DNA from: Candidatus Spechtbacterales bacterium
GTDB lineage: Bacteria > Patescibacteriota > Minisyncoccia > Spechtbacterales > 2-12-FULL-38-22
Assembly: GCA_040879145.1 (NCBI GenBank)
Contig: JBBDKX010000021.1
Span: 29,256 to 93,255 of the forward strand
Direction: 5' to 3'
Length of the DNA: 64,000 nucleotides
The translations under genes and the position numbers were made by a program. Position 1 is the stretch's first letter. Every line of letters begins with the position of its first letter. Under the pieces are notes generated by a model, which was given only the letters and a program-made list of their open reading frames with translations, was not told the origin of the DNA and ran no database searches. Below, piece after piece: positions 10,317-46,714 of the stretch.

Positions 10317-10337
10317 GATTTTGTTTAAATCTTATTT

Positions 10338-10729
10338 TGGCGGTGTTTTTTGATTGATGTTCGAACTTTTTTTGAGGAAAACCCCCAATAAGGAAGCCAG
10401 CCCCGCCACGGCTCGGAAACCTCGCCACACCACAGAAAAATACTCTTTGCTCTTTTCATTTTGCGCGCGCCGGATTTCTTTTTCTTCTAATGAAAAGAGT
10501 ATTTTTCTGCGGTGTTCTGCCCTCCAAGTATTCGGGCAGGTGGCGGGGCTGTCCTCAATTTGATTTCGTAAAGAAAAAGCGGAATTCCCCCCAAACCCCC
10601 CTTCCGCTTTTTCTTTTCTCAAACGGAACGGGAACGGAAGCAGTCGGGCAAAAATTCCTTCCCCCCAAACCCCTTCCTTTTTGCCCGCCTGCTTGGGCTT
10701 CGCCCACAAAACTTTTCGGCGGGACGGCG
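10338..10729. repeat. 392-bp inverted repeat, copy 1 (IR-A1); GC-rich, highly self-complementary; partner at 20572-20964
   Basis: Reverse complement matches 20572..20964 with only a few mismatches; ends in TTGGCGGTG. Confidence 0.9.
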
Positions 10730-11467
10730 TTATTTTATCAAATTCCAATTATCGAGGAAATATCCCATTTCGTGATCTTTATTTCCGAGATACACTTTTT
10801 CGTCTCTAAATTTGATATTCACTCGATAGCGTTTTCCATGCCCGACTTCCAAAATGGCTTTTTCGTGGACTTTCTTTTCAACTTCATGAAATGGCAAAAT
10901 CAAAAAATTGTTTTTCTTCTCGCCGTGCAAAACAAAAATATAGTAAATATTTCCGTTGCTGTGGCGTTCAAAAGACACTTTGCGAATATCAAAAACATAA
11001 GTATCAAAACTATTCAAATTTGAGGTTTTAACCTGTATGCCAAACAATTGATTTTCTTTGACCGCCACAATATCCATTCCCACATCTACGCTCATTATAC
11101 TGGCGTTGAAACCACGAAAAAGCAACTCGCTACAAACTAAATACTCGCCAGCTTTTCCGGTAAATCCACCAGCAATAACAATTTTTTCTTCTTCCTCTTT
11201 TTCCGCTTCAATAATCTTTGGCGTTTCTTTGATTTCTTTTTTGTTTGGATTGAGCGCAAAAGTTCCGGGTGCGGTTTTGATAAAATCCGAGCCTTCAACT
11301 TTGGTTTTAATATCTACCGTGATTTGCGCGTTCATTGATGCTTCTGGTGTTGCGCCTTCTGTTTCCAAAATACCAGACTCCAAAGCCAACCGAGTGATTT
11401 CGGTATAATGCAAGGGCGTTTTTGCCTTTTTCAATATTTCAATTGCCGATTGTTTGAATGTGTTCAT
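10730..11467 (-). CDS. HARE-HTH (Mrr_N-like winged helix) + restriction-endonuclease-fold protein; candidate Mrr-like nuclease
   Basis: N-term SAIEILKKAKTPLHYTEITRLALESG...GSDFIKTAPGTFAL (HARE-HTH); middle GEYLVCSELLFRG...DVGMDIVAVKE...IQVKT resembles a PD-(D/E)xK core; translationally coupled to upstream gene. Confidence 0.5.
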   Translation of the reverse strand: MNTFKQSAIEILKKAKTPLHYTEITRLALESGILETEGATPEASMNAQITVDIKTKVEGSDFIKTAPGTFALNPNKKEIKETPKIIEAEKEEEEKIVIAGGFTGKAGEYLVCSELLFRGFNASIMSVDVGMDIVAVKENQLFGIQVKTSNLNSFDTYVFDIRKVSFERHSNGNIYYIFVLHGEKKNNFLILPFHEVEKKVHEKAILEVGHGKRYRVNIKFRDEKVYLGNKDHEMGYFLDNWNLIK

Positions 11468-11468
11468 A

Positions 11469-12755
11469 TTATTCTAAGGTTTTATCGTTATCAGAAAGCT
11501 CTGCAAATTTAGCTTCCATTGTGGGATTTCCGCGCGTTAGTCTTTTGATTGTTAAATCTTCAGCTTTATTATTGGCAAGGCGAAGATTATTTTCAGAAGA
11601 CAAGAGAGCGTCTTTAGTTTTTTGAAGATGATCAATGGTTCTGTCTATTTCTTCAATAGCGGTTTTAAATTTGCGACTAGCAAGATCATAATTTTTGGCA
11701 AAACCTTCTTTAAACTTATTTATATTATCCTCAAAGTTTGTTATATCAACATTTTGGCTTTTAACTAAAGCGAGTTCAGCTTTATATTTCAGTGAGTTCA
11801 TCGCCGCGTTGCGAAGCAAGGTAATAATTGGAATGAAAAATTGTGGACGAACAACATACATTTTGGGGTATTTATGAGCAACATCAACAATTCCGGTGTT
11901 GTATAGCTCATTTTCAGCTTCCAAAAGCGAAACAAGAACGGCATACTCGCATTTCTTTTCAGTACGATCTTTGTCTAGTTCTCGCAAAAAATCGTCGTTT
12001 CGTTTTTTTGTAGCAGTTTCATCTCCCTCATTCTTCATCTCAAACATGATTGAGATAATTTCATTGCCGGTTTCGTCGGTCTCTCGATAAACATAATCAC
12101 CCTTACTTCCTGTTTTTGAATCGTTATCTTTTTCAAAATAAGCGTGTTGAAAAGCAGTCGCGCGAAGTTTGTTAAATTCGGTTTCGCAATGCTGTTCAAG
12201 TGTTTCCCCAACCATTTTGGTTGAGAGCTTGAGCTTCATATCTTTGCGAAGGGCGATCTCATCATCTTTCATCTTTATAATATCGTCTTTGGTTTTAAGA
12301 TCGGCTAAATACTTTTCAAGCAATGATTTTTCCAGCAGTTGTTTTTCGGTTTCTTTGCTTTTTAGGTCATTAGCCAGATCATCACGCTCTTTTTCAATCT
12401 TTTTGACTGCTTCGGTAACACTGAGTTTTTTCTCTACCTCAGATTTATCAATCTTTGATTTCATTTCGGCGAGTTCAGCTTCCTTCTTCGCCAATTGTTC
12501 AGCAAGACTGCGATCCTTCTCGGCTCTTAACTCCACCAGTTCTTTATCTTTCTTCGCGAGTTCGTCTTGTAATGTATTTTTGAGATTGGATTCGGCTAAT
12601 TTAACAGCACTTTCTTTTTCCTTTTCCGCAATATTTAATCGCTCACGCAATTCTTCTTCAAATTTATGATCACGAACCTGTTTGAGGATATCAGCAAAAC
12701 CAGCCTCATCGACTTTGAAAACTTTTTTACAATTTGGACATATAATATCTTGCAT
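11469..12755 (-). CDS. DUF2130-like protein: N-terminal zinc ribbon, long coiled coil, C-terminal globular (RmuC/nuclease-like) domain
   Basis: [20 protein letters not shown], then about 200 aa of Glu/Lys coiled coil, C-terminal [22 protein letters not shown]; 18 nt after hsdR. Confidence 0.5.
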
Positions 12756-12773
12756 ATTGATTATTTTATTTTG

Positions 12774-15700
12774 TTATAACTTACCACCTGAAATATCAAA
12801 GAATCGCTCAAAGAAACTTGTTAGCTTATACAAAACACTTTCTCGTTTCTGTGTTCTTTCACCAGTTGGAGAAAATCGAGACACGGGCGGTAATACTTTT
12901 GATATCGCAGTACCAGTTGTTGCAACGCTTCCGTCTCGAAAAGCATTTTTTATAAATTTATAGGTTGCCTCTTTATCAAGATTTTCATTTTCAATAATTT
13001 TTTCCAATTCCTCAATCTTCTTTTCTTCTACAAATTTTTGCCAATCTTCATCAACAATTGAATGCACATCAAGAGAGGTAATAAATTGATTAATGAGATC
13101 CTTTTTATTTCGGAGTTCAACGCTAGAATCAATCGCTTTATTAATATCAACCAAAAGTTCTTTATTCTTTGTATGATCTTCGTGATATCTTTTTATAAGC
13201 CCTAAAATATAATCAATATTAATCTCGACTTGCTTAATAAGCTCCATTTCAAAGACTAGATCGTCATTAACATTTTCTTGTTCTCCATCAACACCTTTGC
13301 GAAATTCATTATACAAATCAATATACATGCTGTGATAATCCTGCACATCACGCTCGGTCAGAATTTCATTACCTGCGAATTCATCAAAAGTTGTCAGGAT
13401 ATTTCGCACACGCAAAACCGCTCCATATAATTTGATAAAATCTTTTTGGTTCTGTTCTCCAACAATACTTTCACCGACTGGAAATTTCTCTAAAAGTTCG
13501 TCTATTAAACTTTTGTAACCCCGGACTTGTTTTTCGCCGTCTTTATAGCCATTGTAATAATCGGCATAGGCTTTCAGCAGGACAATGCCACATGCTTCTT
13601 TGTCTCCAAAAAGTGCAATAGATTCGTTAGTTGCTTTTTCTAGGTTGCGAAAACAAACAATATTTCCAAAGGTTTTTACACTGTTTAAAATGCGGTTTGT
13701 TCTGGAAAATGCTTGTAACAATCCATGTAAACGAAGATTTTTATCAACCCATAAAGTATTAAGAGTTGTTGCGTCAAATCCGGTCAAAAACATGTTTACC
13801 ACAATCAAAATATCTATTTCTCTTTTTTTAACTCTTTCGCTTACATCTTTATAATAATTTTGAAACTTATCTGACGAAGTATCATAGGAAGTTCCAAACA
13901 TCTTGTTATAATCAACGATAGCTTTTTCCAGAAAATCTCGAGAGCTGACATCAAGTCCGCTCGTATCTTCAGAATTTTCATCAATCATTCCGTCCGCGTC
14001 TTCATCATTGACCCCAAAACTAAAAATCGTAGCTATTTTAAGTCGTTTGTCGCTTGGCTCGTCGGTTAGTTGCTTTTTAAATTCAAGATAATACTTTTTT
14101 GCCACATCAATAGACGAAACGGCAAAAATAGAATTAAATCCCGCCAGTCTGCGATCCTGAATTTTATAAAAACTATTTCGTTTTGTCTTTTGGTCAAAAT
14201 GTTCTCGAATATATCGGACAATATTTTCCAGTCGCTCTGGGGCGCAAAGTATAGCCTCGCGATCAATATCTTTCACTTTTGCATCTTCAATATTTTCCGC
14301 TTCACGAACTGTAGAAACATAATCAACCTTAAACGGCAAAACATTTTTGTCAGCAATTGCATTGACGATTGTGTAAGTGTGCAATTTTTCTCCAAAAGCT
14401 TGTTCGGTAGTTTTGAAATCAATGCGACCGCCAGATGAAGAATTTACCGCAAAAATTGGCGTGCCGGTAAAGCCAAAAAGATGATAATTGTTAAATGCTT
14501 TGACGATACTCGCATGCATATCGCCAAATTGTGAACGATGGCACTCGTCAAAAATCAAAACAATATGTCCGTCAAAAATAGTGTGTCCAGAGTTTCGATT
14601 GATAAATCTGTCTAATTTTTGAATCGTTGTAATAATTATCCGAGAATTAGAATTTTCTAATTGTTTTTTCAAAATAGCGGTACTGGTATTGCTATTCGCC
14701 GCCCCTTTTTCAAATTTGTCATACTCTCGCATTGTTTGATAGTCCAAATCCTTACGATCAACTACAAATAAAACTTTATCTACATAAGGTAATTTGCTGA
14801 CGAGTTGAGCGGTTTTAAAACTGGTCAAAGTCTTTCCCGAACCTGTCGTATGCCAAATATAACCGCCTGCTTCTATTGTCCCTAGTTTTTTATAATTTGT
14901 ACTAACCTCAACTCTGCTCAATATTCGTTCGGTAGCAACTATTTGATATGGTCGCATCGCTAAAAGCTGTTTATCGGTAGTAAACACACAATATTTAGTC
15001 AAAATATTCAAAATCGTATGCTTGGCAAAAAATGTCTTGGCAAAATCCATCAGCTCGGTAATTGGTTTATTTGTCGCGTCTGCCCACCAGCTCGTAAATT
15101 CAAAACTATTGCTCGATCTTTTTCCTTTTTTGATTTTGCCTTCGCTTGCTTCTTTTATGTGCTGTGATCTGGTTGTATTGCTGTAATATTTGGTATGCGT
15201 TCCATTGGAAATAATAAAAAGTTGTACATATTCAAAAAGTCCGCTGGATGCCCAAAAACTTTCTCGTTGGTAACGATTGATTTGATTAAATGCTTCTTGG
15301 ATGGCGACACCACGGCGTTTTAGCTCGATATGAACAAGAGGAAGTCCGTTTACCAGAACTGTCACATCATAACGATTCACTCGCTGTCCGTCCTCGGTCG
15401 CATATTGATTGATCACCTGCAAGCTGTTGTTGTGAATATTTTTCTTGTCTATTAGATCAATATTCTTAAAAGTGCCGTCATCTCGGTCTAATATTTTTGT
15501 GCTATCTTCTTGAATAGTGGCGGTTTTTTCTTCAATGCTTTGATTTGGATTGGCAATAATACTGACAAAAAACTTTCCCCATTCGGTATCGGTAAAAGTA
15601 AAATTATTTAGTTTTTCCAACTGTTGACGCAGATTAAGAACAAGCTCATTTTCAGAAGTGATTTTCAAATATTCGTATGCTTGCGTTTCTAATTGTTTTA

Positions 15701-15827
15701 TAAAAACACTCTCAAGATCGGCTTCACTTTGGTAGTGAGCCACTCTTTTGGTATCTGGAACATACTCGGCAACAACCGTGCTTTGAGTGCTTTCGGCGAC
15801 TAAGTTGTATTTATTCTTATTTGGCAT
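12774..15827 (-). CDS. hsdR: Type I restriction enzyme R subunit (HsdR)
   Basis: 1017 aa; HsdR_N, helicase motif I HTTGSGKTLT, motif II FDECHRSQ, C-terminal HsdR_C; overlaps hsdS by 11 nt. Confidence 0.9.
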   Translation of the reverse strand: MPNKNKYNLVAESTQSTVVAEYVPDTKRVAHYQSEADLESVFIKQLETQAYEYLKITSENELVLNLRQQLEKLNNFTFTDTEWGKFFVSIIANPNQSIEEKTATIQEDSTKILDRDDGTFKNIDLIDKKNIHNNSLQVINQYATEDGQRVNRYDVTVLVNGLPLVHIELKRRGVAIQEAFNQINRYQRESFWASSGLFEYVQLFIISNGTHTKYYSNTTRSQHIKEASEGKIKKGKRSSNSFEFTSWWADATNKPITELMDFAKTFFAKHTILNILTKYCVFTTDKQLLAMRPYQIVATERILSRVEVSTNYKKLGTIEAGGYIWHTTGSGKTLTSFKTAQLVSKLPYVDKVLFVVDRKDLDYQTMREYDKFEKGAANSNTSTAILKKQLENSNSRIIITTIQKLDRFINRNSGHTIFDGHIVLIFDECHRSQFGDMHASIVKAFNNYHLFGFTGTPIFAVNSSSGGRIDFKTTEQAFGEKLHTYTIVNAIADKNVLPFKVDYVSTVREAENIEDAKVKDIDREAILCAPERLENIVRYIREHFDQKTKRNSFYKIQDRRLAGFNSIFAVSSIDVAKKYYLEFKKQLTDEPSDKRLKIATIFSFGVNDEDADGMIDENSEDTSGLDVSSRDFLEKAIVDYNKMFGTSYDTSSDKFQNYYKDVSERVKKREIDILIVVNMFLTGFDATTLNTLWVDKNLRLHGLLQAFSRTNRILNSVKTFGNIVCFRNLEKATNESIALFGDKEACGIVLLKAYADYYNGYKDGEKQVRGYKSLIDELLEKFPVGESIVGEQNQKDFIKLYGAVLRVRNILTTFDEFAGNEILTERDVQDYHSMYIDLYNEFRKGVDGEQENVNDDLVFEMELIKQVEINIDYILGLIKRYHEDHTKNKELLVDINKAIDSSVELRNKKDLINQFITSLDVHSIVDEDWQKFVEEKKIEELEKIIENENLDKEATYKFIKNAFRDGSVATTGTAISKVLPPVSRFSPTGERTQKRESVLYKLTSFFERFFDISGGKL

Positions 15828-16998
15828 ATTCTTTTTCTTTGAAAGTTAGAAGTTTCCCTCGGTAGTATTCATATTGTGATCGACGAGCTTTGAGTTCAGC
15901 CGGTAAGCCAATTGAAATATCATTTACAAGGGCATCAAATTTGTCGAGGATTGAAACAATTCGTTTTTGTTCGGGTAAGAGTGGAATAGGAATTTTAAAC
16001 TCTTTTACCTTGGCATCTGAAATTGATGGATATGCAGAACCTTCTTGCTTCTGTTCAACATAATCATTAAAACGACTAGAAGCAATATTGAAATATATCC
16101 ATTTTGGCAGAACTTTTTTTTCATCTGCTCTTAAAACACAATATCCAGTACTTGCAATCTGCCCGTCATAAACATCATCAATTAGAGTATATCGTCGTAG
16201 GGTTGGACGAGTGGTTGCAAAAATCACATCATCTTTTTGTATAAGTTTTTGCGCTCTACTAGGTGCGTTATTTGAATTAATTTCAACAGTTTCATTTATA
16301 CTATGATCATCACGGCTAACAGATGTTAAATCAATATATTTATAAATTTTGTCTATTTCTTTCCATTTTATATTTTGAGTTGAGAATGTTACTTCCCCCA
16401 AAGTTTTATATTCTACATCTTTTATATTCAACAAATCATCTCGATAATGCTCATACTGCTTCTTCCTCGCCTCCAGCTCTGCCTCCAGCTCTGCCTCCAG
16501 CTCTGTAAAACTATCAAGAATTTTGACGATTTCTTGTTGGACTGGGAGGGGTGGGATGGGGATTTTGATTTTTTCCATTACATTACTCATTATCTTGGGA
16601 TTTCCCATTCCAGCACTAACATATTTTTTAGATAATGTCGCCAAGATATATGAAAGGAACTTCATGTTCACATTCCTATCTTTAGCTTTCAAAAGTCCGC
16701 AAACATTCGTAATACTAAATTTTCCGTTACGATAGAAAATTGAACCAGCATATGCTCCGTCAGTTGTCCAAGTTATATACTCACCGTCATAGTCATAAGT
16801 ATTGATGCGACCAAAAACACCGTTGTCCGCTGTTTGAGATGAATACACTGGATACTCGCCGGCATTTTCATTCAAATAATCTTTTGACATTACTCTCCCG
16901 CGATTGATTTGGCAGATTTCACCAATACTCTTTAACTCAATCCCATTCGGGCAAAGTTCAGCAATTAGTTTTTCGATTTTAGATTGATTAGTTATCAT
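15817..16998 (-). CDS. hsdS: Type I restriction-modification specificity subunit (HsdS), two target-recognition domains
   Basis: 393 aa; conserved central region LPPLPVQQEIVKILDSFTELEAELEAELEARKKQYEHYRDDLL and C-terminal LPEQKRIVSILDKFDALV...LKARRSQYEYYRGKLL. Confidence 0.85.
   Translation of the reverse strand: MITNQSKIEKLIAELCPNGIELKSIGEICQINRGRVMSKDYLNENAGEYPVYSSQTADNGVFGRINTYDYDGEYITWTTDGAYAGSIFYRNGKFSITNVCGLLKAKDRNVNMKFLSYILATLSKKYVSAGMGNPKIMSNVMEKIKIPIPPLPVQQEIVKILDSFTELEAELEAELEARKKQYEHYRDDLLNIKDVEYKTLGEVTFSTQNIKWKEIDKIYKYIDLTSVSRDDHSINETVEINSNNAPSRAQKLIQKDDVIFATTRPTLRRYTLIDDVYDGQIASTGYCVLRADEKKVLPKWIYFNIASSRFNDYVEQKQEGSAYPSISDAKVKEFKIPIPLLPEQKRIVSILDKFDALVNDISIGLPAELKARRSQYEYYRGKLLTFKEKEYAK
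16468..16503. repeat. 12-bp tandem repeat x3 (CGCCTCCAGCTC / TGCCTCCAGCTC x2) encoding (ELEA)n in hsdS central conserved region
   Basis: Directly visible in sequence; in-frame 4-aa repeat ELEAELEAELEA. Confidence 0.9.
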
Positions 16999-18593
16999 AA
17001 TTTTTTAAGTGAATCGACATCGCTTTCTATATATCCTCTTAAGATATCAATTGACTCTTTCAGTTTTTCATCAAAATCACCCTTCTTGTTTGCCGGATAA
17101 TGGATACAATTTCTAATAAATGTTGGCAATGTTACTTTCGCATTTTTTACTTTAGGTTTACTTGTATCAGTACAGTCTTTTTCAGCTTTTTTTATTTGTT
17201 TGAGATATTGTTCATCAAAAGCATTTATACCTATACTTTCAATATGCTTTGATTCATCTTTTTCTTTAGAGTTCTTGTCATTAACAAACCAATCTCTTAA
17301 TTTATCGTAAAGTTCGTTGTGGTATTGTTCATCTAAAATGTCGAAAACTTCATATGACACTTCTGCATAGCTTGTTTGTTTTTTACCTAATTCATCAACC
17401 TCTCGTACATTTGTATATTCTTCATTATTTTGATTTTTTATCTTTTCAACTCGATAATATCTACCCAAATCTTTTTTATCAATCATGTAGTTCGAGTGTG
17501 TGGCGAATAAAACAATATTACTTTTGCTATTGTTTGTAATCTCTACAAGCTGAGCAAGTAAATGCTCTTGTGCTTTTGGATGTAAATGTGTTTCAGGCTC
17601 ATCAAGTAAAATAATTGTATTTTGCAGTTCCTCATTTTTATTTTCTGCAACGACAGTTAATAAAAAAGAAATGAATTGCTTAAAACCATCACTCCGCATG
17701 TCTGATGTCTGAGCTTTTCCTTCTGTATCAATATCTTTAACATGAAAATTAATATGCCCATCCATTATCTTAAATGTAATTTCTATAGGATGTTTGGGCC
17801 AAGCTGTATTAATATGCTCTGTTACATTTTTGCCAAGTCTCTTTTCAAGATATTCACAAGTTGGAGTATCAGCTAAAGCATCCTCTAGTTCCTGTTTTAT
17901 TTTATCTTGAGAAATTGAAGATAGTAAAAAACAGTTTCTCAGAGGTATTGAGGTGTTTGTGTCATTAATAAACTGTTCAATATTTATCGGTTTTGAAATT
18001 AGATAACGATCTTCTGCAGTCCAGAAAATTGTTTTATGTACATTTTCCTCTATAAAGTTATCAAATTCATCTTTGTTATTGATTTCAATTTCTTGATCTC
18101 CTTCAAAAACTGAAGTTGAATATTCAGGATCAGCACTAGCCTTAGAAAAACTAATAACATAATCTGCAATCAAAGAGCTCAAAATTTTATTCTTTGGTTT
18201 TTTAACTTCCTTAATTTTACTATCTTCAACATCTTGCGTCTGCCCACCTTCTATAGCAGAAACTTCTTTTTCTAAATTTGGGACTGGATTATCAACAGAA
18301 TCTTCTTTATTTAAAATCTCGTACAATTCCTTATCCTCTTTCGAAGTAATACTATATCGATAAGTAATTTTTATTTCTTCTTTTAATCTAAAGTCTTTTA
18401 ATAATGGAAGTTTTGTACCAGAGTCGTCAACTAATCCATCTTTTAAGCCAATCGCTTTTAATATAGATGATTTACCAGCTTCATTTATTCCTATTAATCC
18501 GTAAGTGAAACTATTGTCATCTCTTTTGATTATGTTAAAAGGAGTTTCTTTTATACTTCTATAATTTTCAATTGTAATTTTTGTGATTTTCAT
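16995..18593 (-). CDS. ABC/SMC-like AAA ATPase (OLD/AAA_15-like head) with about 130-aa C-terminal domain of unknown function, embedded between hsdM and hsdS
   Basis: Start reassigned to MKITKITIENYRSIK (ATG 18593, 4 nt after hsdM stop); Walker A GINEAGKSSILKAIGL; Walker B ILLDEPETHLHP; ATHSNYMID. Confidence 0.7.
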   Translation of the reverse strand: MKITKITIENYRSIKETPFNIIKRDDNSFTYGLIGINEAGKSSILKAIGLKDGLVDDSGTKLPLLKDFRLKEEIKITYRYSITSKEDKELYEILNKEDSVDNPVPNLEKEVSAIEGGQTQDVEDSKIKEVKKPKNKILSSLIADYVISFSKASADPEYSTSVFEGDQEIEINNKDEFDNFIEENVHKTIFWTAEDRYLISKPINIEQFINDTNTSIPLRNCFLLSSISQDKIKQELEDALADTPTCEYLEKRLGKNVTEHINTAWPKHPIEITFKIMDGHINFHVKDIDTEGKAQTSDMRSDGFKQFISFLLTVVAENKNEELQNTIILLDEPETHLHPKAQEHLLAQLVEITNNSKSNIVLFATHSNYMIDKKDLGRYYRVEKIKNQNNEEYTNVREVDELGKKQTSYAEVSYEVFDILDEQYHNELYDKLRDWFVNDKNSKEKDESKHIESIGINAFDEQYLKQIKKAEKDCTDTSKPKVKNAKVTLPTFIRNCIHYPANKKGDFDEKLKESIDILRGYIESDVDSLKKL

Positions 18594-18597
18594 AAAT

Positions 18598-20178
18598 TTA
18601 TCGTTTAGTATTTTCAATATCCGCCACAATCTCATCAATCGCAGTACGCAGTTCATTTTGTCTTGACACGATCTTGGCAATTTTTTCGTTGAGTTCCGTT
18701 ATATTCACCACCTCGCGTGTATCTTCCGCCATCACATAACTTGAAACCGCAATATTGTAATCATTCTCACCAATAGTTTTATTATCAACTAACTTTGCAA
18801 AATACTCTGCATCTTGTCGTAGCGTAAAAGCATCAAGAATTTTTTTGCGATTTCCTTCGCTCAATTTATTTTTATTTCCGCCCCGTACAAATTCAGCCGA
18901 GGCATCAATAAATAAAGTTTTGTTGTCTTTTTTGCTTTTTTTCAAAACAATAATGCAAGTAGCAATAGTCACCCCAAAAAATAGATCGGGGGGAAGCTGG
19001 ATAACCGTATCAATATAGTTATTATCAACCAAATACTTGCGGATTTTTTGTTCAGCTCCGCCACGATAGAGAACTCCCGGAAATTCAACAATCGCCGCCG
19101 TTCCGCTGGTTGAAAGCCACGCAAGCATGTGCATGGTAAAAGCGAGATCAGCTTTGCTCTTTGGCGCCAACACCCCAGCCGGCGAAAAACGCGGATCATT
19201 AATCATCAAAGGATTGGCATCGCCGTCCCACTTTATCGAATATGGCGGATTAGAAACAATGGCGTCAAACGGTTCATCATCCCAATGTTTTGGATCAGTG
19301 AGTGTGTCGCCGTGAGCAATATCAAAATGATTGTAATTAATATCATGCAAAAACATGTTGATACGGCAAAGATTGTAGGTAGTGAGATTTATTTCTTGAC
19401 CAAAAAATCCCTGCCTGACATTTTCCTTGCCAAGCACTTTTGCAAATTTCAAAAGAAGCGAACCAGATCCACAGGCTGGATCGTAGACTTTATTAACTTC
19501 TGTTTTGCCTGCTGTTGCGATTTCCGCCAAAAGCTCGCTCACTTCTTGAGGTGTATAATATTCTCCGCCAGATTTACCAGCATTAGATGCGAACATCGCC
19601 ATTAAATATTCGTAAGCATCACCAAAAGCGTCGATTGTATTATCTCCATAATTACCAAGACGAAGATCGCCGATGGCTTCTAAAAGTTTTACGAGTTTTT
19701 GATTTCTTTTCTCTACAGTTCCACCGAGCTTATTTGAATTCACATCTAAATCGTCAAATAATCCTTTCAAGTCATCTTCACTATCAAATCCTTTCGCAGA
19801 ATTTTCGATATTATCAAAAACATTTGAAAGTGTTTCGTTAAGTTTTGCATCGTTGCGAGCATTTTTACGAACATTTACAAAAAGAGCACTTGGTAAAATA
19901 TAAAAACCTTTTTCTTTTATAGTGTCGGCTCTTCCAAATTCAGCTTCTTTATCAGAAAGTGAAGCATAATCAAAATCTTTGTTGCCGGTGCGTCGCTCAT
20001 CGGCATTGATGTAATTTGTAAGATTTTCGCTGATGAAACGATAAAAAAGTATTCCAAGAACATATTGCTTGAAATCCCACCCATCAACGGCACCTCGCAA
20101 ATCATTGGCAATCTGCCAAATAGCACGATGAAGTTCGGCTCGTTCTTGTTCTTTGGTTGTATTTAGATTATTTGCCAT
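18598..20178 (-). CDS. hsdM: Type I restriction-modification DNA methyltransferase (HsdM), N6-adenine
   Basis: 526 aa; HsdM_N; SAM motif YDPACGSGSLL; catalytic SNPPYSIKW. Confidence 0.9.
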   Translation of the reverse strand: MANNLNTTKEQERAELHRAIWQIANDLRGAVDGWDFKQYVLGILFYRFISENLTNYINADERRTGNKDFDYASLSDKEAEFGRADTIKEKGFYILPSALFVNVRKNARNDAKLNETLSNVFDNIENSAKGFDSEDDLKGLFDDLDVNSNKLGGTVEKRNQKLVKLLEAIGDLRLGNYGDNTIDAFGDAYEYLMAMFASNAGKSGGEYYTPQEVSELLAEIATAGKTEVNKVYDPACGSGSLLLKFAKVLGKENVRQGFFGQEINLTTYNLCRINMFLHDINYNHFDIAHGDTLTDPKHWDDEPFDAIVSNPPYSIKWDGDANPLMINDPRFSPAGVLAPKSKADLAFTMHMLAWLSTSGTAAIVEFPGVLYRGGAEQKIRKYLVDNNYIDTVIQLPPDLFFGVTIATCIIVLKKSKKDNKTLFIDASAEFVRGGNKNKLSEGNRKKILDAFTLRQDAEYFAKLVDNKTIGENDYNIAVSSYVMAEDTREVVNITELNEKIAKIVSRQNELRTAIDEIVADIENTKR

Positions 20179-20182
20179 AATT

Positions 20183-20392
20183 TTATTTCATTAAATCATC
20201 AAGCGAAACGCCGAGAGCGTCCGCAATTTTTTTGACTGTATCAATAGTAGGGTTGGGAGTAGAGCCAGCTTCAATTTTGGCAATCGTATGAAAAGCCAAA
20301 TCTGCTTTTTTTGAAAGCACATCTTGAGAAATACCGAGCTTGTTTCGGTATTTCTTTATATTCTCGCCAATTGTGGATTTTTCGTTTGACAT
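20183..20392 (-). CDS. XRE-family HTH transcriptional regulator (candidate C-protein/controller of the R-M operon)
   Basis: 69 aa; IKKYRNKLGISQDVLSKKADLAFHTIAKIEAG HTH_XRE; first gene of operon, 4 nt before hsdM. Confidence 0.8.
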   Translation of the reverse strand: MSNEKSTIGENIKKYRNKLGISQDVLSKKADLAFHTIAKIEAGSTPNPTIDTVKKIADALGVSLDDLMK

Positions 20393-20397
20393 ATTCG

Positions 20398-20451
20398 TAT
20401 AGTTTTACTATTATAGTTGTATAGTATTAAAAACATCACTTATTTATAGTT
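20398..20451 (-). promoter_or_regulatory. Putative promoter/operator of XRE-hsdM operon: TATAAT -10 (minus strand, 20410-20415) and 4 copies of ACTATA(A)
   Basis: Minus-strand read: ...ACTATACAACTATAATAGTAAAACTATACGAAT-ATG; repeated half-sites resemble C-box operators. Confidence 0.3.
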
Positions 20452-20571
20452 AGTATATGAAATTTTTAGCATTTAGTCAAACAAAATTAGGGAGTTCTTT
20501 TGACATAACGCGCGCACGGGTGGGTGGGGCAAGCGTTATCCCTCTTTTATCCTCTCTTTTGTTTTCTGTCC

Positions 20572-20964
20572 CGCCGTCCCGCCGAAAAGTTTTGGGGGCG
20601 AAGCCCAAGCAGGCGGGCAAAAAGGAAGGGGGTTGGGGGGAAGGAATTTTTGCCCGACTGCTTCCGTTCCCGTTCCGTTTGAGAAAAGAAAAAGCGGAAG
20701 GGGGGTTTGGGGGGAATTCCGCTTTTTCTTTACGAAATCAAATTGAGGACAGCCCCGCCACCTGCCCGAATACTTGGAGGGCAGAACACCGCAGAAAAAT
20801 ACTCTTTTCATTAGAAGAAAAAGAAATCCGGCGCGCGCAAAATGAAAAGAGCAAAGAGTATTTTTCTGTGGTGTGGCGAGGTTTCCGAGCCGTGGCGGGG
20901 CTGGCTTCCTTATTGGGGGTTTTCCTCAAAAAAAGTTCGAACATCAATCAAAAAACACCGCCAA
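20572..20964. repeat. 392-bp inverted repeat, copy 2 (IR-A2)
   Basis: Near-identical reverse complement of 10338..10729; ends ...CACCGCCAA, overlapping the start of IR-B1. Confidence 0.9.
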
Positions 20965-21091
20965 TTTTCACTTTTTGTGAAATCGTAAGGAATTGCCTCG
21001 GCGCAAAGCGCCTCGGCATGGTATTTTTCCGCAATTTTGAAGGCATTTTTGAAATCCAAAAACAAAGAGCGGTCGGCAATGCGGAAGTTCG
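20958..21091. repeat. About 134-bp inverted repeat IR-B1 (inverted copy of the recombinase 3' coding end plus tRNA-Ser-proximal sequence)
   Basis: Reverse complement identical to 22575..22709. Confidence 0.85.
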
Positions 21092-21205
21092 CAGAGCGAA
21101 GCTCTGGCAAAATGAAATTTTGCAAACCAATCTTTTTTCTTTCGCTTTCAGCGAAAGGTTGAGCGTATTTTTCTTTGATTGCCCAAAAACTAATTTCAAA
21201 ACAAT

Positions 21206-22819
21206 ATGGACAACATAAATTTACAAACCAAAAAGTTTTTCCTCTATGCCCGTAAATCCACGGACGAACCCGAAAGGCAGGTTTTGAGTATTGAAGCGCA
21301 AATTTTCGAGCTGAAAGAATACGCCCGAAAAGAAAATTTGCAGATCGTCCGTGAATTTGTGGAAAGCAAAACCGCCAAAGAACCCGGGCGAGAAATTTTT
21401 AATGAAATGGTGGCGGGCATAGAGAAAAACGAAGCCGAGGGAATTTTAGCGTGGCACCCTGACCGTCTTGCTCGCAATTCCATAGACGGCGGACGAATAA
21501 TCTATCTTGTAGATACTGGAAAGATCACCACGCTAAAATTTCCAACTTTTTGGTTTGATTCAACTCCACAGGGAAAATTTATGTTGTCCATTGCTTTTGG
21601 GCAATCAAAATACTATGTGGATAATCTTTCGGAAAATATAAAGAGGGGTATTCGCCAGAAATTGCGAAATGGAATTTGGCCCGCTTGGGCGCCACTTGGC
21701 TATATAAACGATAAAAACGCTCGCTGTATCGCTGTGGACAAAGAAAAGGCGAAGTATATCAAGCGGGCTTTTGAAATGTATTCAACTGGCGAATATCCCC
21801 TCGCTCAAATCCGAAAGATTATCAATTCCTTGGGCTTGGTTGGCAAGAAAGGCAAAATGCTTTCCGTCTCAAATTATCAATATATGCTCAAGAACAAAAT
21901 ATATTTTGGCATGATTGAATATAACGGCGAATTGTATGACGGAAAGCATGAACCGATTATCACAAAGAAACTTTTTGATTCTGTTCAAGAAGTGATGATG
22001 AAAAAATCCAAACCGAAAACGCCAAAATTGAAACCGTATGTGTATAGAGGATTTTTCCGTTGCGGAGAGTGTGGCTGTTTCATAACTACCGAAACGCAGA
22101 AAGGTCATAACTACCTGCGATGCACTAAACGGAAAAATCCTTGCACGCAAAAATATGTTCGCGAGGAAATCATCACTTCTCAAATAAAAGAGGAAATCAA
22201 AAAAGTTTCTTTGTCTTCCGCTTGGGCAAACGCTTCAATCAATTATTTTGAAAATGAAAAATTGAAAACCGCCCAAGCGGAAAGCTCTTTTGCCCAAAAG
22301 TCGCGAGATGAGCTTGTGGAAACAGAAACAAAACTTGATCGTTTGCTTGATTTACATTTGGAAGGCAGTTTGTCGCAAACGGAATATGCTACTAAAAAGC
22401 ACAAGCTCATTCTCGCAAAAAAGGATTTGGAAGAAAAAATCTCGTCTTTTGGGCGAAAGAGCAATAATCGGTTCGAACTTGCCATAAACTTCATAAAAGA
22501 AGCCAACCAAGCCGAAAAATACGCTCAACAAGAAAATCCCGAAAGGATTCGGGATTTTCTCAAAAAGATTGGTTCGAACTTCCGCATTGCCGACCGCTCT
22601 TTGTTTTTGGATTTCAAAAATGCCTTCAAAATTGCGGAAAAATACCATGCCGAGGCGCTTTGCGCCGAGGCAATTCCTTACGATTTCACAAAAAGTGAAA
22701 ATTGGCGGAGGGGGTGGGACTCGAACCCACATAGGCTTGCGCCTGCCAGTTTTCAAGACTGGTTCCTTAGCCAATTCGGAGCACCCCTCCTTATTTATTT
22801 TTTCTTCTTTTTACCCTGA
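21206..22819 (+). CDS. Large serine recombinase (resolvase N-domain + recombinase domain + zinc ribbon + coiled coil)
   Basis: YARKSTDEPERQ catalytic Ser motif; PLGYIND recombinase domain; CGECGCFITTETQKGHNYLRC zinc ribbon; ORF as predicted runs through IR-B2 and antisense across tRNA-Ser, so true stop is uncertain. Confidence 0.8.
   Translation: MDNINLQTKKFFLYARKSTDEPERQVLSIEAQIFELKEYARKENLQIVREFVESKTAKEPGREIFNEMVAGIEKNEAEGILAWHPDRLARNSIDGGRIIYLVDTGKITTLKFPTFWFDSTPQGKFMLSIAFGQSKYYVDNLSENIKRGIRQKLRNGIWPAWAPLGYINDKNARCIAVDKEKAKYIKRAFEMYSTGEYPLAQIRKIINSLGLVGKKGKMLSVSNYQYMLKNKIYFGMIEYNGELYDGKHEPIITKKLFDSVQEVMMKKSKPKTPKLKPYVYRGFFRCGECGCFITTETQKGHNYLRCTKRKNPCTQKYVREEIITSQIKEEIKKVSLSSAWANASINYFENEKLKTAQAESSFAQKSRDELVETETKLDRLLDLHLEGSLSQTEYATKKHKLILAKKDLEEKISSFGRKSNNRFELAINFIKEANQAEKYAQQENPERIRDFLKKIGSNFRIADRSLFLDFKNAFKIAEKYHAEALCAEAIPYDFTKSENWRRGWDSNPHRLAPASFQDWFLSQFGAPLLIYFFFFLP
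22575..22709. repeat. IR-B2 (partner of 20958-21091), ending in the tRNA-Ser 3' terminus
   Basis: Sequence identity with reverse complement of IR-B1. Confidence 0.85.
22703..22790 (-). tRNA. tRNA-Ser (anticodon UGA), long variable arm, CCA encoded
   Basis: Minus-strand GGAGGGGTGCTCCGAATTGGCTAAGGAACCAGTCTTGAAAACTGGCAGGCGCAAGCCTATGTGGGTTCGAGTCCCACCCCCTCCGCCA; cloverleaf and anticodon loop CTTGAAA. Confidence 0.85.
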
Positions 22820-22998
22820 GTTCGTCGAATGGGCCAATCCTTTATCCTCAATCCTTTTCCAAATTTCTTAACAACCACCTTTTGATGCTCTTGCCATTTC
22901 AGTTCGCGCATTAACTCAATAGGGATGTTTATATGGTACATATCCCCTGACTTTTGTATATTCCTTATATTTTCTTCCTCTATCTTTCTTCTTGGCAT
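22795..22998 (-). CDS. AbrB/SpoVT(MazE)-like small DNA-binding protein
   Basis: 67 aa; YHINIPIELMRELKWQEHQKVVVKKFGKGLRI resembles a swapped-hairpin AbrB fold; Lys-rich tail. Confidence 0.4.
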   Translation of the reverse strand: MPRRKIEEENIRNIQKSGDMYHINIPIELMRELKWQEHQKVVVKKFGKGLRIKDWPIRRTQGKKKKK

Positions 22999-23083
22999 AA
23001 CAAAAAAAATAATATTATAAATAGTACTATTTATAATATTATTTTGGCGGTGTATTCTAAAAATAGCTTACTAAGATAAAAAA

Positions 23084-23500: not shown

Positions 23501-23538
23501 ATAAAATATTAGCTTGTTCTGTTTAATTATTGCTGATG

Positions 23539-23623
23539 CGGAGGAGGTGGGATTCGAACCCACGGGCCGCTAACGCGGCACGGTTTAGCAAACCGTCCCA
23601 TTTGACCACTCTGGCACTCCTCC
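23539..23623 (-). tRNA. tRNA-Ser (anticodon GCU), long variable arm
   Basis: Minus strand GGAGGAGTGCCAGAGTGGTCAAATGGGACGGTTTGCTAAACCGTGCCGCGTTAGCGGCCCGTGGGTTCGAATCCCACCTCCTCCG. Confidence 0.8.
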
Positions 23624-23643: not shown

Positions 23644-24660
23644 TTAATTGTTGTATTTTTTCAAATGTTTAGGATTATTACTGCTTATTGTATCAAAATA
23701 AATTTTCATGTCATGCTTACTATCCAAACGCACATCCCGCCCTGCCAGTCTTGGATTTAAGCCAGTATTGCGCATTATTTTGAAAACTGAATTTCTAAGG
23801 GGTTCTGAATAAGATGTAAATGACAGTTTTTTATAAGAGTACTCCTTACTCTTAACTCTATATCTATGAATAAAAATAGAGCCATCTGTGTCAACCAAGC
23901 CCCGCAGGCACGCAATTTCGAAATCTTTATCACCCATTATCCATTTCGGTATATCTACCTGCTTTTTTATTTTATTACCTCTTACTAAACCCAGATTATT
24001 TTCACAAAACCTTACTAACTCTACTCGAGATACCGCATAAATACACGCATTAGCATCTTTTCGTTCGTGAATTCCCACATATACTCCAAACAGATTCTCC
24101 ATTAAATTTTTTACATATACGCCATATTTTTTATCATCTTTACTATGAAGTGTAACTGTAACCTGTTGATTAGATATACCCCCATCCCCTAACATTATTC
24201 CAACAAACTCTGCAAGGCTTTTTGAGTATTTAGGTTTTTTAATTTTTATTGGAGCACTTGTAAGCCCGCTTGACTTAAAACGCCCTTCTTTCTCCCACCA
24301 TTCATACCATTTCTGTTTTCTGTATTTCTCATTTTTTGGCATTTCCCCATACTTACTAATAACAGCCTCCCACCCCAACTTTGCGCCTTCATGCGCATAC
24401 CAATATTTATCTAACATCGTTATATCTTTAGGCCAAGATTGTTTAGATTTCTCACATAAAATTTTCAACGATTTTTCATTTATTAAAAATTTTTCACGTC
24501 GCCAATCTCTAACAGTACGCTCAGACCTACCACACCACTTTGCCATTTGTTCAACTGAAAACTCTTTTTCTATATTTTCTATAAAAGCTTTTTGTTTTCC
24601 TTTTGGAAATCTTATTCTGCTATCTTTAATCTTTTCAGCCATATCTCCATAATACACCAT
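23644..24660 (-). CDS. Free-standing LAGLIDADG homing endonuclease (two motifs) with N-terminal HTH-like region
   Basis: LAEFVGIMLGDGGIS and LRGLVDTDGSIF LAGLIDADG motifs; 338 aa; 21 nt upstream of tRNA-Ser(GCT). Confidence 0.8.
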   Translation of the reverse strand: MVYYGDMAEKIKDSRIRFPKGKQKAFIENIEKEFSVEQMAKWCGRSERTVRDWRREKFLINEKSLKILCEKSKQSWPKDITMLDKYWYAHEGAKLGWEAVISKYGEMPKNEKYRKQKWYEWWEKEGRFKSSGLTSAPIKIKKPKYSKSLAEFVGIMLGDGGISNQQVTVTLHSKDDKKYGVYVKNLMENLFGVYVGIHERKDANACIYAVSRVELVRFCENNLGLVRGNKIKKQVDIPKWIMGDKDFEIACLRGLVDTDGSIFIHRYRVKSKEYSYKKLSFTSYSEPLRNSVFKIMRNTGLNPRLAGRDVRLDSKHDMKIYFDTISSNNPKHLKKYNN

Positions 24661-28560: not shown

Positions 28561-29184
28561 TCAAACGAAACTAGAGAGATAAAGCTCTCCCTTTATCTTG
28601 CCCTCTTCTCTCATTTTTATCAGTTTTCCTCTTAAGTCAGGAGTTAGGGATGAGCAGCCTGTAAAATAAGCATCTCCGTTGAATATAATATTGTCGGGTA
28701 TTTCTTTGAGAGATGTGCAGCCTCCAAAATAAGCCCTTCTTTCAAAGGTTGTGTTGTCGGGTATTTCTTTGAGAGATGTGCAGTGCCCAAAATTAGCATC
28801 TCCTTCAAAGGTTGTGTTGTCGGGTATTTCTTTTAATGTTTCCGCATAGGGACTAAAATCTATATTCTTGGACACGATGATCTTCTCTTTTTCTGTATCT
28901 ATTTTAAAATTGGCTTCAATAAATTCTCCCGCCTCCTCTTCGCTGTTACCCAGGTTTTCCCGCGCCCATTGTATGAGTTTTTCTTTTTCTCTTTCTGGGT
29001 TGAACTCCTGTTCTTGAGCGCCACTATCTGCATTATCATATTTTTCTAATTCATCTAGATCTTGAGGATCATCATCCTGAGGCATCGCACCTCCTAGTTT
29101 TTCTATACTCATAATATTAAAATTTAATTCTACTCTTCCATAATACCCCCCCCGACCTAAAAATGCAAGCGTTTTTATACACAA
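28561..29184 (-). CDS. Leucine-rich-repeat (BspA/TpLRR-like) repeat protein; true start uncertain (29184 or 29112)
   Basis: 21-aa repeats IPDNTTFEGDANFGHCTSLKE x3; 63-bp nucleotide tandem repeats. Confidence 0.5.
   Translation of the reverse strand: MCIKTLAFLGRGGYYGRVELNFNIMSIEKLGGAMPQDDDPQDLDELEKYDNADSGAQEQEFNPEREKEKLIQWARENLGNSEEEAGEFIEANFKIDTEKEKIIVSKNIDFSPYAETLKEIPDNTTFEGDANFGHCTSLKEIPDNTTFERRAYFGGCTSLKEIPDNIIFNGDAYFTGCSSLTPDLRGKLIKMREEGKIKGELYLSSFV
28681..28828. repeat. 63-bp tandem repeats (about 2.3 copies plus a degenerate copy upstream) inside LRR gene
   Basis: TTGTCGGGTATTTCTTTGAGAGATGTGCAG... repeated. Confidence 0.85.
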
Positions 29185-29246: not shown

Positions 29247-29312
29247 TACAACAAGTACAACCTATTAAAAGAGAGACGGCCGTCTCTCTTTTAATAGGTT
29301 GTACTTGTTGTA
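29247..29312. repeat. 66-bp perfect palindrome (33+33, no loop)
   Basis: Checked base-by-base: 29247..29279 is the reverse complement of 29280..29312. Confidence 0.9.
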
Positions 29313-39559: not shown

Positions 39560-39939
39560 AGCCCGTTCTTTGCAATCTAAAATCAATTTGACGGAGCGAA
39601 TTTTCAAATGAATGCTAGGCGTGAGGAGCGAAGCGATGCCAGGAGCATCGTGAGCAACGAACAACAACGCAGGCATTGAAAATTCGCCCGCCGACTCATT
39701 TAATTTACATTGCGGTCCCATCGTCTAGTCTGGCCTAGGACGCCAGGTTTTCATCCTGGTAACACGGGTTCGAATCCCGTTGGGACCGCAATGTACGTTA
39801 GTAAAAGGAAACAAAATAGTACGCCATCTGCTTCGTTACGCTTTCCTAGAAGTAATATAAATTACTCCTTCGTCACCGCGCCTACCATATGGCGCACTCT
39901 TTTGTTTTCAAATTGATTTTAGATTGCAAAGAACGGGCT
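39560..39939. repeat. Segment bounded by perfect 31-bp inverted repeat (39560-39590 / 39909-39939) enclosing an intact tRNA-Glu
   Basis: AGCCCGTTCTTTGCAATCTAAAATCAATTTG and its exact reverse complement. Confidence 0.85.
39714..39788 (+). tRNA. tRNA-Glu (anticodon UUC)
   Basis: GGTCCCATCGTCTAGTCTGGCCTAGGACGCCAGGTTTTCATCCTGGTAACACGGGTTCGAATCCCGTTGGGACCG; close to the E. coli tRNA-Glu pattern. Confidence 0.85.
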
Positions 39940-39942
39940 GAA

Positions 39943-39991
39943 GCCTAGGACGCCAGGTTTTCATCCTGGTAACACGGGTTCGAATCCCGTT
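39943..39991 (+). other. 3' two-thirds of a second tRNA-Glu copy (D-loop to CCA), lacking its own 5' end
   Basis: GCCTAGGACGCCAGGTTTTCATCCTGGTAACACGGGTTCGAATCCCGTTGGGACCGCCA identical to intact copy; CCA encoded here but not in intact copy. Confidence 0.6.
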
Positions 39992-40058
39992 GGGACCGCC
40001 ATATAAATTACCAAAAGGAAAACGGCTTATTAAGCCGTTTTCCTTTATAGATCAATTA

Positions 40059-41249: not shown

Positions 41250-41257
41250 TTAACTCA

Positions 41258-46582: not shown

Positions 46583-46714
46583 ACAAGCAAATTAACGATA
46601 TATAAATTTAGACCGTTGCAAGCGCCTACCTTATAACCCAAATTTGTTATTAATGAATTCTAAGATAGAAAAAGTGGGGTCTAAATTTATATATCGTTAA
46701 TTTGCTTTTACATA

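Follow-up and report, generated by a model that had tools for sequence, protein, structure and literature searches.

A probable modular element of a large serine recombinase at tRNA-Ser, with a restriction-modification operon boxed by repeats that resemble attachment-site arms

We analyzed a 64,000-nt stretch of DNA from a Candidatus Spechtbacterales bacterium (assembly GCA_040879145.1, contig JBBDKX010000021.1, positions 29,256 to 93,255), hereafter the window, in which a type I restriction-modification (R-M) operon lies between long inverted repeats, next to a large serine recombinase (LSR) gene and a tRNA-Ser(UGA) gene. Coordinates are positions within this 64-kb window unless a related locus is named. 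We conclude with good confidence that the DNA at 10337-22708 is one integrated copy, of ~12.4 kb, of a modular element that is mobilized by the LSR, sits at tRNA-Ser, carries the R-M operon as defence cargo and has repeats derived from the arms of its attachment (att) sites. The crossover core of these sites sits inside the LSR open reading frame (ORF), the inner junction of the element is an inverted attP, and the same plan is conserved across a family of elements; in these three respects, the result goes beyond the first-pass annotation of this DNA.

The inverted repeats (IR) form two pairs. The IR-A pair is 393 nt long and 99% identical (IR-A1, 10337-10729, plus strand; IR-A2, 20572-20964, minus strand), and the IR-B pair, which flanks the recombinase, is 134 nt long and 100% identical (IR-B1, 20958-21091, minus strand; IR-B2, 22575-22708, plus strand). 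Both pairs had been recognized in the first-pass annotation, which put the longer, near-identical one at 392 bp, and both are borne out. IR-A2 and IR-B1 overlap only by a 7-nt core, TTGGCGG, which occurs in direct orientation at 10337-10343 and 22702-22708 and inverted at 20958-20964; the direct/direct/inverted arrangement described earlier is correct, although two of its three positions were off by one. At one mismatch, 0.33 matches to a 12-mer around the core are expected, and chance is excluded because the repeats are hundreds of nucleotides long and recur in >40 independent assemblies. We found no further copy of IR-A or IR-B in the window, and an Rfam scan of 9-26 kb (E ≤ 1) returned tRNAs only, with no match in repeats A or B.

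Repeat B corresponds to the end of the LSR gene, 134 nt that run up to the crossover core, and repeat A is the native continuation of the LSR gene together with downstream DNA. Since B is the LSR 3' end and A the native tail, the three junctions read as flank/A (attR), B/A inverted (a copy of attP) and B/tRNA (attL). J1, the attR-type junction (core TTGGCGG, 10337-10343, plus strand), joins the RidA-side host flank on its left to the A arm. J2, the inverted attP-type junction (CCGCCAA, 20958-20964, minus strand), reads on the minus strand as B arm, TTGGCGG and A arm without a break, encodes ...SENWRCFLIDVRTFFEENPQ and a stop codon, and doubles as an attP-type site and as a pseudo 3' end for the LSR. 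J3, the attL-type junction (22702-22708, plus strand), joins the B arm to the tRNA, whose CCA end comes from the element. IR-B2 holds the true 3' coding end of the LSR and, closing with the core, forms the attP left arm; IR-B1 repeats these 134 nt in inverted orientation as a pseudo-copy and likewise corresponds to the attP left arm. IR-A1 and IR-A2 are the distal copy and the proximal inverted copy, respectively, of the attP right arm plus a putative insulator. Within IR-A1 we located a pseudo-copy of the LSR native tail (CFLIDVRTFFEENPQ and stop, 10344-10391), a TTCGAAC motif (10360-10366), a hairpin with a 22-bp stem (10427-10515), a bidirectional terminator-like hairpin (10570-10616) and a distal conserved hairpin segment (10636-10729). 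Judged by their sequences, the junctions behave as attR, attP and attL, and we regard these site assignments as well supported. A 253-aa ORF across A2 and B1 (20457-21218) had no Pfam match and was taken as spurious.

The LSR gene (21206-22819, plus strand, 537 aa as read) has the Pfam domains of a large serine recombinase, or serine integrase: a Resolvase catalytic domain (PF00239, E=2.3e-20, residues 12-157) with a YARKST motif and S17 as the serine nucleophile, a Recombinase domain (PF07508, E=2.6e-16) and a zinc ribbon (PF13408, Zn_ribbon_recom, E=1.6e-8). Its best match in PDB was 3guv (E=3e-6), through the catalytic domain alone. A scan of IMG/VR with the LSR gave one distant match (56%), so no phage link was found. 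The LSR is the sole mobility gene of the element. Its residues 1-501 are conserved in the family and residues 502-537 are antisense translation of tRNA-Ser, as the ORF runs antisense through the entire tRNA gene to a stop codon at 22817-22819. The recombinase is thus adjacent to tRNA-Ser(UGA), as had been noted, but it does not simply abut the tRNA gene, all of which it crosses.

A search with the LSR gave thousands of relatives, and we examined the best 120, which were 60-93% identical. These homologs are colinear down to ...SENW, whose last codon is the TGG of the core, and then split into two tail classes. In 77 clusters, the tail resembles WRRGRDSNPR and is the antisense of a tRNA acceptor/T arm; in about 20 clusters, it is a native tail of the form WRCFL(I/D)(D/E)VRTFF(E/Q)NP followed by a stop, for a ratio of about 4:1 between the tRNA-antisense and native states. 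Read from its outer end in the LSR frame, repeat A encodes precisely such a 15-aa native tail, CFLIDVRTFFEENPQ, and its stop codon. Among 34 distinct A arms, variability at third codon positions is 2.3-2.8 times that at positions 1 and 2, which argues that the native tail is a selected part of the protein and not a DNA site alone.

The integration target is tRNA-Ser(UGA) (22703-22790, minus strand; ARAGORN, Rfam), whose acceptor/T arm forms the right half of attB. This tRNA gene is intact in the window, with the TTGGCGG direct repeat at the far end of the element (10337 / 22702). An empty site was found in the relative L089, where tRNA-Ser(tga) (33-120 of that locus) is separated from RidA (at 146) by 25 nt; the sequence reads ...CCCTCCGCCA at the tRNA, then the gap taatattttg... 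and the ATG of RidA. The L089 RidA is 84% identical to that of the window and is the closest apart from one that is 100% identical, in a Candidatus Spechtbacterales MAG, and its tRNA-Ser(tga) is almost identical. The first-pass annotation had named an empty site, with tRNA-Ser directly before the RidA-side flank, as the check on its proposal of an integrative element at the tRNA-Ser 3' end with an adjacent LSR and an R-M-plus cargo; that site, the att-like junctions and the 59 of 67 relatives that sit at tRNA-Ser support the proposal. Other RidA relatives (L085-L088, 78% identical) have different neighbours and are uninformative on the empty site, and a metagenome scan for the RidA-side flank plus core gave 0 matches.

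The junctions also allow the exchange to be placed. Across J1, J2 and J3 in 19 related loci and the window, the shared sequence ranges from TTGGCGG down to CGG, and it shrinks to CGG in hosts whose tRNA gene does not encode CCA; this minimum places the exchange in the discriminator and last acceptor bases, with CCA supplied by the element. A TCGAA motif lies at +17 nt from the core in 50 A arms and at +12 nt, in the T arm, in 62 tRNA arms, with the half-site motif being clear in right half-sites only. Since the zinc-ribbon-domain (ZD) motif is offset by 5 bp between attP and attB half-sites of serine integrases (Rutherford et al., PMC3783163), the 5-bp offset of TCGAA independently supports A as a P-type and the tRNA as a B-type half-site. 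We also considered orientation-free recombination at a palindromic CG crossover, and rejected it since no flank/B or A'/tRNA junction occurs in any locus and polarity is kept. Integration by the LSR at the tRNA, with the sites assigned as above, is in our judgment very probable.

Three further observations concern the ends of the element. A Logan contig of the same sample that carries RidA (L001, SRR27977663) ends right after ...TTATTTTGGCGG, which corresponds to window position 10343 and is 23 nt before the break that repeat A alone would give at k=31; this early end hints at a second continuation after the core in that sample, possibly an empty site. An excision or empty-site subpopulation would join ...AAATCTTATTTTGGCGG to AGGGGGTGGGACTC. 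When the 67-aa ORF at 22795-22998 was used as a handle on a Logan contig with tRNA-Ser(tga), no record was found. The 15-nt sequence TTATTTTGGCGGTGT at 23039-23053 equals the J1 junction at 10332-10346 (core, 3 nt of A arm and 5 nt of flank); it lies 250 nt beyond tRNA-Ser(tga), on its upstream side, overlaps the end of a perfect 40-nt palindrome (23006-23045), and could be the remains of an attR left by an older element at the second tRNA-Ser gene, tRNA-Ser(gct) (23538-23623; ARAGORN, Rfam). These two 15-nt copies are ruled out as the true ends of the present element, which would place the tRNA inside it, by the tRNA-Ser(tga) that stands beside RidA in L089.

To place the element in a wider context, we scanned species-representative genomes, which yielded at least 495 LSR relatives, and fetched 80 loci. 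Their hosts are metagenome-assembled genomes (MAGs) of many Patescibacteria classes, at 86-96% LSR identity, and Elusimicrobiota at ~60%. In 67 of these loci the contig includes the LSR 3' end, which runs into tRNA-Ser in 59 (cga 21, gct 16, gga 12, tga 10), tRNA-Gln in 2 and tRNA-Glu in 1, with no tRNA detected in 5. Repeat B is present in 49 of the 50 loci with enough upstream DNA and is nearly always 133-137 nt long, Elusimicrobiota included. A repeat-A pair of 156-423 nt is present in 19 loci, with its proximal arm abutting B1 and its distal arm 1.3-7.3 kb away. The earlier annotation had asked for other copies of the long repeat; beyond the window, in these 19 other genomes, repeat A invariably accompanies the LSR and lies directly against repeat B. 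Both Patescibacteria and Elusimicrobiota show the conserved plan [A - XRE-led cargo - A'][B - LSR - B'] tRNA-Ser, in which the cargo is exchangeable. In each of two MAGs, the element is present twice, at different tRNA-Ser genes (L063/L075 and L064/L077).

B1 and B2 have a median identity of 99.2% within a locus compared to 67% between loci, a likeness that indicates concerted evolution or recent formation. Where the two arms differ, B1 fits the B of another element, such as the B1 of L020, which is 99% identical to the B of L028; these mismatched arms point to module exchange between elements. In the short-A elements L007, L021, L029, L032 and L042, a ~45-nt distal hairpin segment of A (window 10645-10689; L007:7240-7284) is opposite to the core-proximal part, and this sub-module of A is itself inverted in some lineages.

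Some loci of the survey depart from the rest in other ways. Ten loci with near-identical LSR elements (L010, L018, L023, L027, L028, L029, L033, L037, L044 and L058) come from MAGs whose labels are Gammaproteobacteria, Pacearchaeota, Dehalococcoidia, Caldisericales and Verrucomicrobiota, with contigs that range from short to 775 kb; these labels probably reflect binning or labelling problems rather than true hosts. At L031:9661-11596, an LSR module lies between two inverted, identical full tRNA-Ser(gga) genes with differing outer flanks, diverged B arms and no cargo module, as may arise if an internal attP recombined with a second tRNA-Ser site, and a chromosome inversion between tRNA-Ser genes is hinted at. 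At L091:11499-11693, a remnant attL beside tRNA-Ser(cga) consists of a ~35-nt B arm fused to a shortened A', with a complete native-tail LSR across the cargo from it, which looks like the deletion of one LSR module from an array. That module arrays exist is seen at L024:232-7701, where two LSR matches and three inverted-repeat pairs share one 8.7-kb contig.

The cargo of the window element consists of seven minus-strand genes that are spaced by 1-18 nt or overlap. The first is an XRE/HTH_3 gene for a C-protein-like product (20183-20392; Pfam; PADLOC Control_protein, E=8.9e-12), followed by hsdM for the type I methyltransferase (18598-20178; Pfam, PADLOC), a gene for an ABC-type ATPase (AAA_15/AAA_21; 16995-18593, with the true start at MKITKI; Pfam, PADLOC), hsdS for the type I specificity subunit, with two target recognition domains (15817-16998; Pfam, PADLOC), and hsdR for the restriction subunit (12774-15827; Pfam; PADLOC REase_I, 1166 bits). 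The last two genes encode a DUF2130 protein (11469-12755; PF09903, E=4.8e-87) and a HARE-HTH protein with a PD-(D/E)XK nuclease-like domain (10730-11467; PF05066, E=1.9e-18; PF11645, E=7.5e-4, below the gathering score), and the stop codon of the latter abuts IR-A1. The gene identities, confirmed by Pfam and PADLOC, and the spacing agree with the earlier description of a tightly packed seven-gene minus-strand operon with three extra genes. The ATPase between hsdM and hsdS resembles the OLD, AbiL, AriA and GajA families in PADLOC, and the DUF2130 and HARE-HTH proteins had no PADLOC match. Since MTase_I, Specificity_I and REase_I are encoded together (Pfam, PADLOC), the R-M system is of type I, and we infer from sequence that the cargo is a defence cassette of a complete type I R-M system plus ATPase, DUF2130 protein and HARE-HTH nuclease, presumably under C-protein control.

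A conserved divergent promoter/operator region (20386-20480) stands at the head of this operon. A plus-strand promoter-like sequence (TTGACA-17-TATTAT, 20386-20414) faces IR-A2, B1 and the LSR, and a minus-strand one (TTGACT-17-TATACT, 20480-20452) faces the XRE operon, with palindromic TATAGT repeats in between; the promoter hexamers and TATAGT repeats are invariant in six elements. Repeat A contains a bidirectional-terminator-like hairpin, AAAAAGCGGAA-loop-TTCCGCTTTTT (z = -6.6 and -3.0). Since the promoters lie within the cargo and a terminator-like A flanks it on both sides, the cargo appears to be self-promoted with insulator-like flanks.

Cargo organization is similar in the related elements. 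Nearly all loci have one operon on the strand opposite to the LSR that extends up to the distal A arm, and in 16 of 19 related elements a 64-70-aa XRE protein heads it at the LSR-proximal end. The cargoes are 1.3-9.8 kb long and XRE-led, mostly of R-M or defence genes, and the genes that vary are mainly those for methyltransferases, ABC/SMC-type ATPases and restriction enzymes (NgoPII, CfrBI, ResIII-type, GmrSD). Beside A2, the XRE gene and the DNA upstream of it are 84-97% conserved even where the downstream genes are unrelated, which marks both as part of the backbone.

Both modules were found in either orientation among the relatives. In L003, tRNA-Ser is followed by an LSR that points away from it and then by the core, A and the same XRE, and the LSR has the native tail; this is the window arrangement, as found in L004, with the LSR segment inverted. 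Consistent with this, LSR P0061 (native tail) and LSR P0055 (tRNA-antisense tail) are 99.6% identical over 497 residues. For elements with the identical LSR P0093, the cargo is XRE-first in L092, L093, L094 and L096 and far-end-first in L091 and L095, and for the identical LSR P0064 it is found both ways in two JGI samples of one project (L097, L098). The cargo repeat of the P0093 and P0064 elements is only 56-70 nt long and is thus resolved by k=141 contigs. The L042 cargo is likewise inverted relative to the common orientation. By contig comparison in these relatives, then, cargo and LSR segments do both invert in nature. The first-pass annotation had offered serine-recombinase inversion sites as one reading of the inner repeats; the two orientations in relatives support it in part. 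Either the LSR or homologous recombination may do the flipping, and by default we ascribe the inversions to RecA-mediated exchange between the repeat copies.

These data can be assembled into the following model. The free form would be a circle in which two inverted copies of attP separate a cargo arc from an LSR arc, and recombination of one attP with the attB in tRNA-Ser would give F/A-cargo-A'/B-LSR-B'/tRNA, F being the host flank, with the tRNA rebuilt with its CCA. Such a double-attP circle, proposed from the arrangement of the junctions, has about an even chance of being correct. Integration through the in-gene attP would swap the native tail of the LSR for the tRNA-antisense tail, whereas a flip of the LSR segment between the B repeats would restore the native tail without excision, and integration through the pseudo-copy attP would likewise keep it. 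The tail swap may modulate LSR activity or direction by analogy with Mx8, and the B duplicate may be kept to make the tail change reversible; a functional tail switch of this kind is doubtful, and the reason proposed for keeping the inverted attP copy is likewise a conjecture. The A repeats would insulate the cargo operon on both sides through their terminator-like hairpins and would, in addition, be the homology or recombination arms through which cargo is inverted and exchanged.

A more ambitious version of this model, which we consider speculative and somewhat unlikely, would make the element a natural LSR cassette platform, in which two inverted attP sites allow integration in either orientation, a state-dependent C-terminus replaces a recombination directionality factor (RDF) and the A arms swap cargoes. 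The native tail in the circle or after an LSR flip and the tRNA-antisense tail after integration would then form a built-in directionality switch, and defence operons would be inverted or swapped through the A arms, much as in recombinase-mediated cassette exchange. If true, this would explain how one ~90%-identical backbone comes to carry dozens of R-M and defence cargoes across classes of the candidate phyla radiation (CPR) without conjugation machinery.

Several observations weigh against our reading of the element. A circle, excision and inversion are only predicted for the source population, from assembled sequence, and since the B/A junction is already present inside the element, contigs cannot tell the circle from the integrated form. 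Conservative recombination alone cannot create the inverted attP duplicate, and no RDF was identified. The crossover between L091 and L092 falls within the innermost 28 identical bp of the 56-bp repeat, not in the TTGGCGG core, and canonical serine integrases do not recombine attP with attL or attR (PMC3783163), so LSR-catalyzed inversion is not expected and homologous recombination could explain the flips. The XRE-proximal cargo orientation is the same in most GTDB loci, which suggests that cargo inversion is not random, and short-read orientation is unreliable for repeats longer than the assembler k. Lastly, L031, L091 and L024 lie outside the simple plan, as rearranged or arrayed modules.

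Since inversion is evident in the relatives, we considered whether the LSR could mainly be an invertase that phase-varies the R-M operon, its own gene or both, with the tRNA site being merely historical. This would fit with both segments being found both ways in identical or near-identical elements, with a recombinase gene inside its own invertible segment, which recalls Hin, and with the confinement of the L091/L092 crossover to 28 bp; the conserved plus-strand promoter that faces the LSR from the cargo also means that LSR orientation could matter. However, a flip should not switch an operon whose promoter lies inside the invertible cargo and which has the same terminator-like repeat on both sides, and elements that are 86-96% identical at four tRNA-Ser isoacceptors, in many CPR classes and, in some MAGs, in two copies are actively mobile. 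An empty site exists in L089, and the serine-integrase site rules disfavour attP by attL or attR recombination (PMC3783163), such that we regard a dedicated inversion switch as unlikely. Rather less probable is that two elements lie side by side, a non-autonomous A...A' cargo and an autonomous minimal B...B' LSR that are separately mobilized and nested at one tRNA. Here, the presence of inverted cores at the ends of each module is impossible from one conservative insertion of a single-att circle, A and B overlap by the core and together form one ORF-continuous attP (B/A encodes the native LSR C-terminus), and cargo modules without an adjacent LSR module were not seen among the loci examined. 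Mismatched modules (L013, with B1 and B2 75% identical; L020, with its B1 99% like the B of another element), the LSR-only module between two tRNA-Ser copies in L031 and the L024 array with two LSRs do favour separate elements, as do the many ~2-kb contigs that hold B-LSR-B' alone, although such contigs are the expected assembler breaks at repeats.

The long, near-identical inverted repeats that box the operon had earlier raised the possibility of miniature inverted-repeat transposable element (MITE) or insertion sequence (IS) ends, in which case a composite transposon would have moved the R-M operon with the LSR as a bystander. This possibility is contradicted by the make-up of the 393-bp repeats from LSR 3' end and native tail: the repeat opens with LSR tail-coding sequence, the flanking 7-mers are the att core, neither a transposase domain (Pfam) nor a target-site duplication was found, the window holds no other copy, and in the 19 other genomes the repeat is always LSR-tied and abuts B. 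We therefore consider a composite transposon very improbable. An assembly artefact, in which repeats and gene order result from mis-joined repeats in a metagenome assembly, is yet harder to credit. While the window does come from a MAG and Logan contigs of the same sample break at the repeats, the same architecture is found in >40 independent assemblies (MEGAHIT k141, SPAdes, scaffolders), including a single-cell genome (L009) and a contig named like a long-read assembly, k141 contigs span the 134-bp repeat, and the repeat boundaries fall exactly at a feature of the LSR gene that is seen at the codon level. A modular LSR element at tRNA-Ser thus remains our preferred reading.

Beyond the element, the window contains several other repeats and ORFs. 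A 92%-identical copy of the 3' two-thirds of tRNA-Glu(ttc) (39714-39789) lies 210 nt further on (39943-40021), near a perfect 32-nt inverted repeat (39560-39591 / 39908-39939), and the region 39714-40021 resembles the scar left by, or the ends of, a further small tRNA-associated insertion. A 338-aa ORF directly upstream of tRNA-Ser(gct) (23644-24660) has a faint LAGLIDADG_3 match. We also noted three tandem 63-nt repeats (28646-28834), a perfect 66-nt palindrome (29247-29312), a cluster of 30-46-nt palindromic repeats (41245-41338) and a perfect 30-nt inverted repeat with a 63-nt spacer (46585-46707).

Serine integrases are textbook users of protein-coding or intergenic targets and need a separate directionality factor. 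Against the expectation that tRNA genes belong to tyrosine integrases, the present LSR family of at least 495 relatives sits at the 3' end of genes for all four tRNA-Ser isoacceptors. The family spreads R-M and defence cassettes in Patescibacteria and Elusimicrobiota, with ~90% protein identity across classes, in organisms whose routes of gene exchange are poorly known. The in-ORF core, the selected native tail and the kept inverted attP lead to testable predictions on RDF-independent directionality, and a compact enzyme with a highly conserved target (the tRNA-Ser acceptor/T arm) is of possible interest for genome engineering. For annotation, the element accounts for LSR ORFs that run through tRNA genes and for CPR assembly breaks at these loci.

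Phage-type LSRs (Listeria A118/LI, phiC31, Bxb1, SPbeta) have the same domain set as the window LSR, with short sites and a small shared core, and in them the motif is likewise 5 bp nearer the centre in the attB-type than in the attP-type half-site (PMC3783163). Unlike these enzymes, the window LSR has a tRNA target, has its att core in the integrase ORF and is distant from solved structures, and the element holds an intact inverted attP whose arms are 134 and 393 nt long; no phage is involved, and no RDF was identified. A closer match in target is found in the Ralstonia filamentous phages phiRSM1 and phiRSM3, whose serine recombinase uses an attP/attB core, TGGCGGAGAGGGT, that is the 3' end of tRNA-Ser(UCG) (PMC3816273). 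This core and that of the window (TTGGCGGAG...) are the same part of the same tRNA family, whereas the phiRSM Int is of the small resolvase/invertase type, in an inovirus and with a 13-nt core, compared to an LSR with a 3-nt minimal core, defence cargo and double inverted repeats here. The intragenic core is reminiscent of Mx8, where the ORF for IntP crosses attP and integration changes the int 3' end and the properties of the integrase (PMC6070905); in Mx8 and the fusellovirus SSV, the integrase ORF extends across attP and acquires a new 3' end upon integration (PMC4383910). However, the Mx8 and SSV integrases are tyrosine recombinases with no second inverted attP, while the duplicate of the 3' end in the window would allow the native end to be recovered.

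The Hin H segment and the Gin G segment are DNA bounded by inverted sites and found in both orientations, and the hin gene lies inside its own invertible segment. Both orientations were seen here in relatives only. Hin and Gin are small invertases (~190 aa) with 26-bp sites, an enhancer and Fis, and they switch a promoter; the window has an LSR of 500+ aa, repeats of 134 and 393 nt in place of ~26-bp sites, and a promoter inside the segment, with the enhancer not having been searched for. Tn4451 (TnpX), Tn5397 (TndX) and SCCmec (Ccr) are small cargo elements with no mobility function other than an LSR, and a separate RDF may be unneeded; these elements follow another target logic, with no tRNA target, no long inverted repeats derived from att sites and no intragenic att core. 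The tRNA-targeting islands and tycheposons are likewise small cargo or defence islands with a tRNA-proximal integrase and a rebuilt tRNA 3' end, but they use tyrosine integrases almost exclusively (tyrosine recombinases in 910 of 937 tycheposons), and tRNA genes are regarded as tyrosine-integrase territory (PMC4383910). This family was not described in anything returned by our literature search, which covered LSRs, tRNA-Ser, CPR and inverted repeats, and a study of gene exchange in Patescibacteria (PMC12455944) does not mention recombinases. The combination is new and apparently undescribed: an LSR is directed to tRNA-Ser and has the core inside its own gene, the element retains an inverted attP whose arms measure 134 nt and 156-423 nt, and its defence cassette is led by XRE and can be exchanged.

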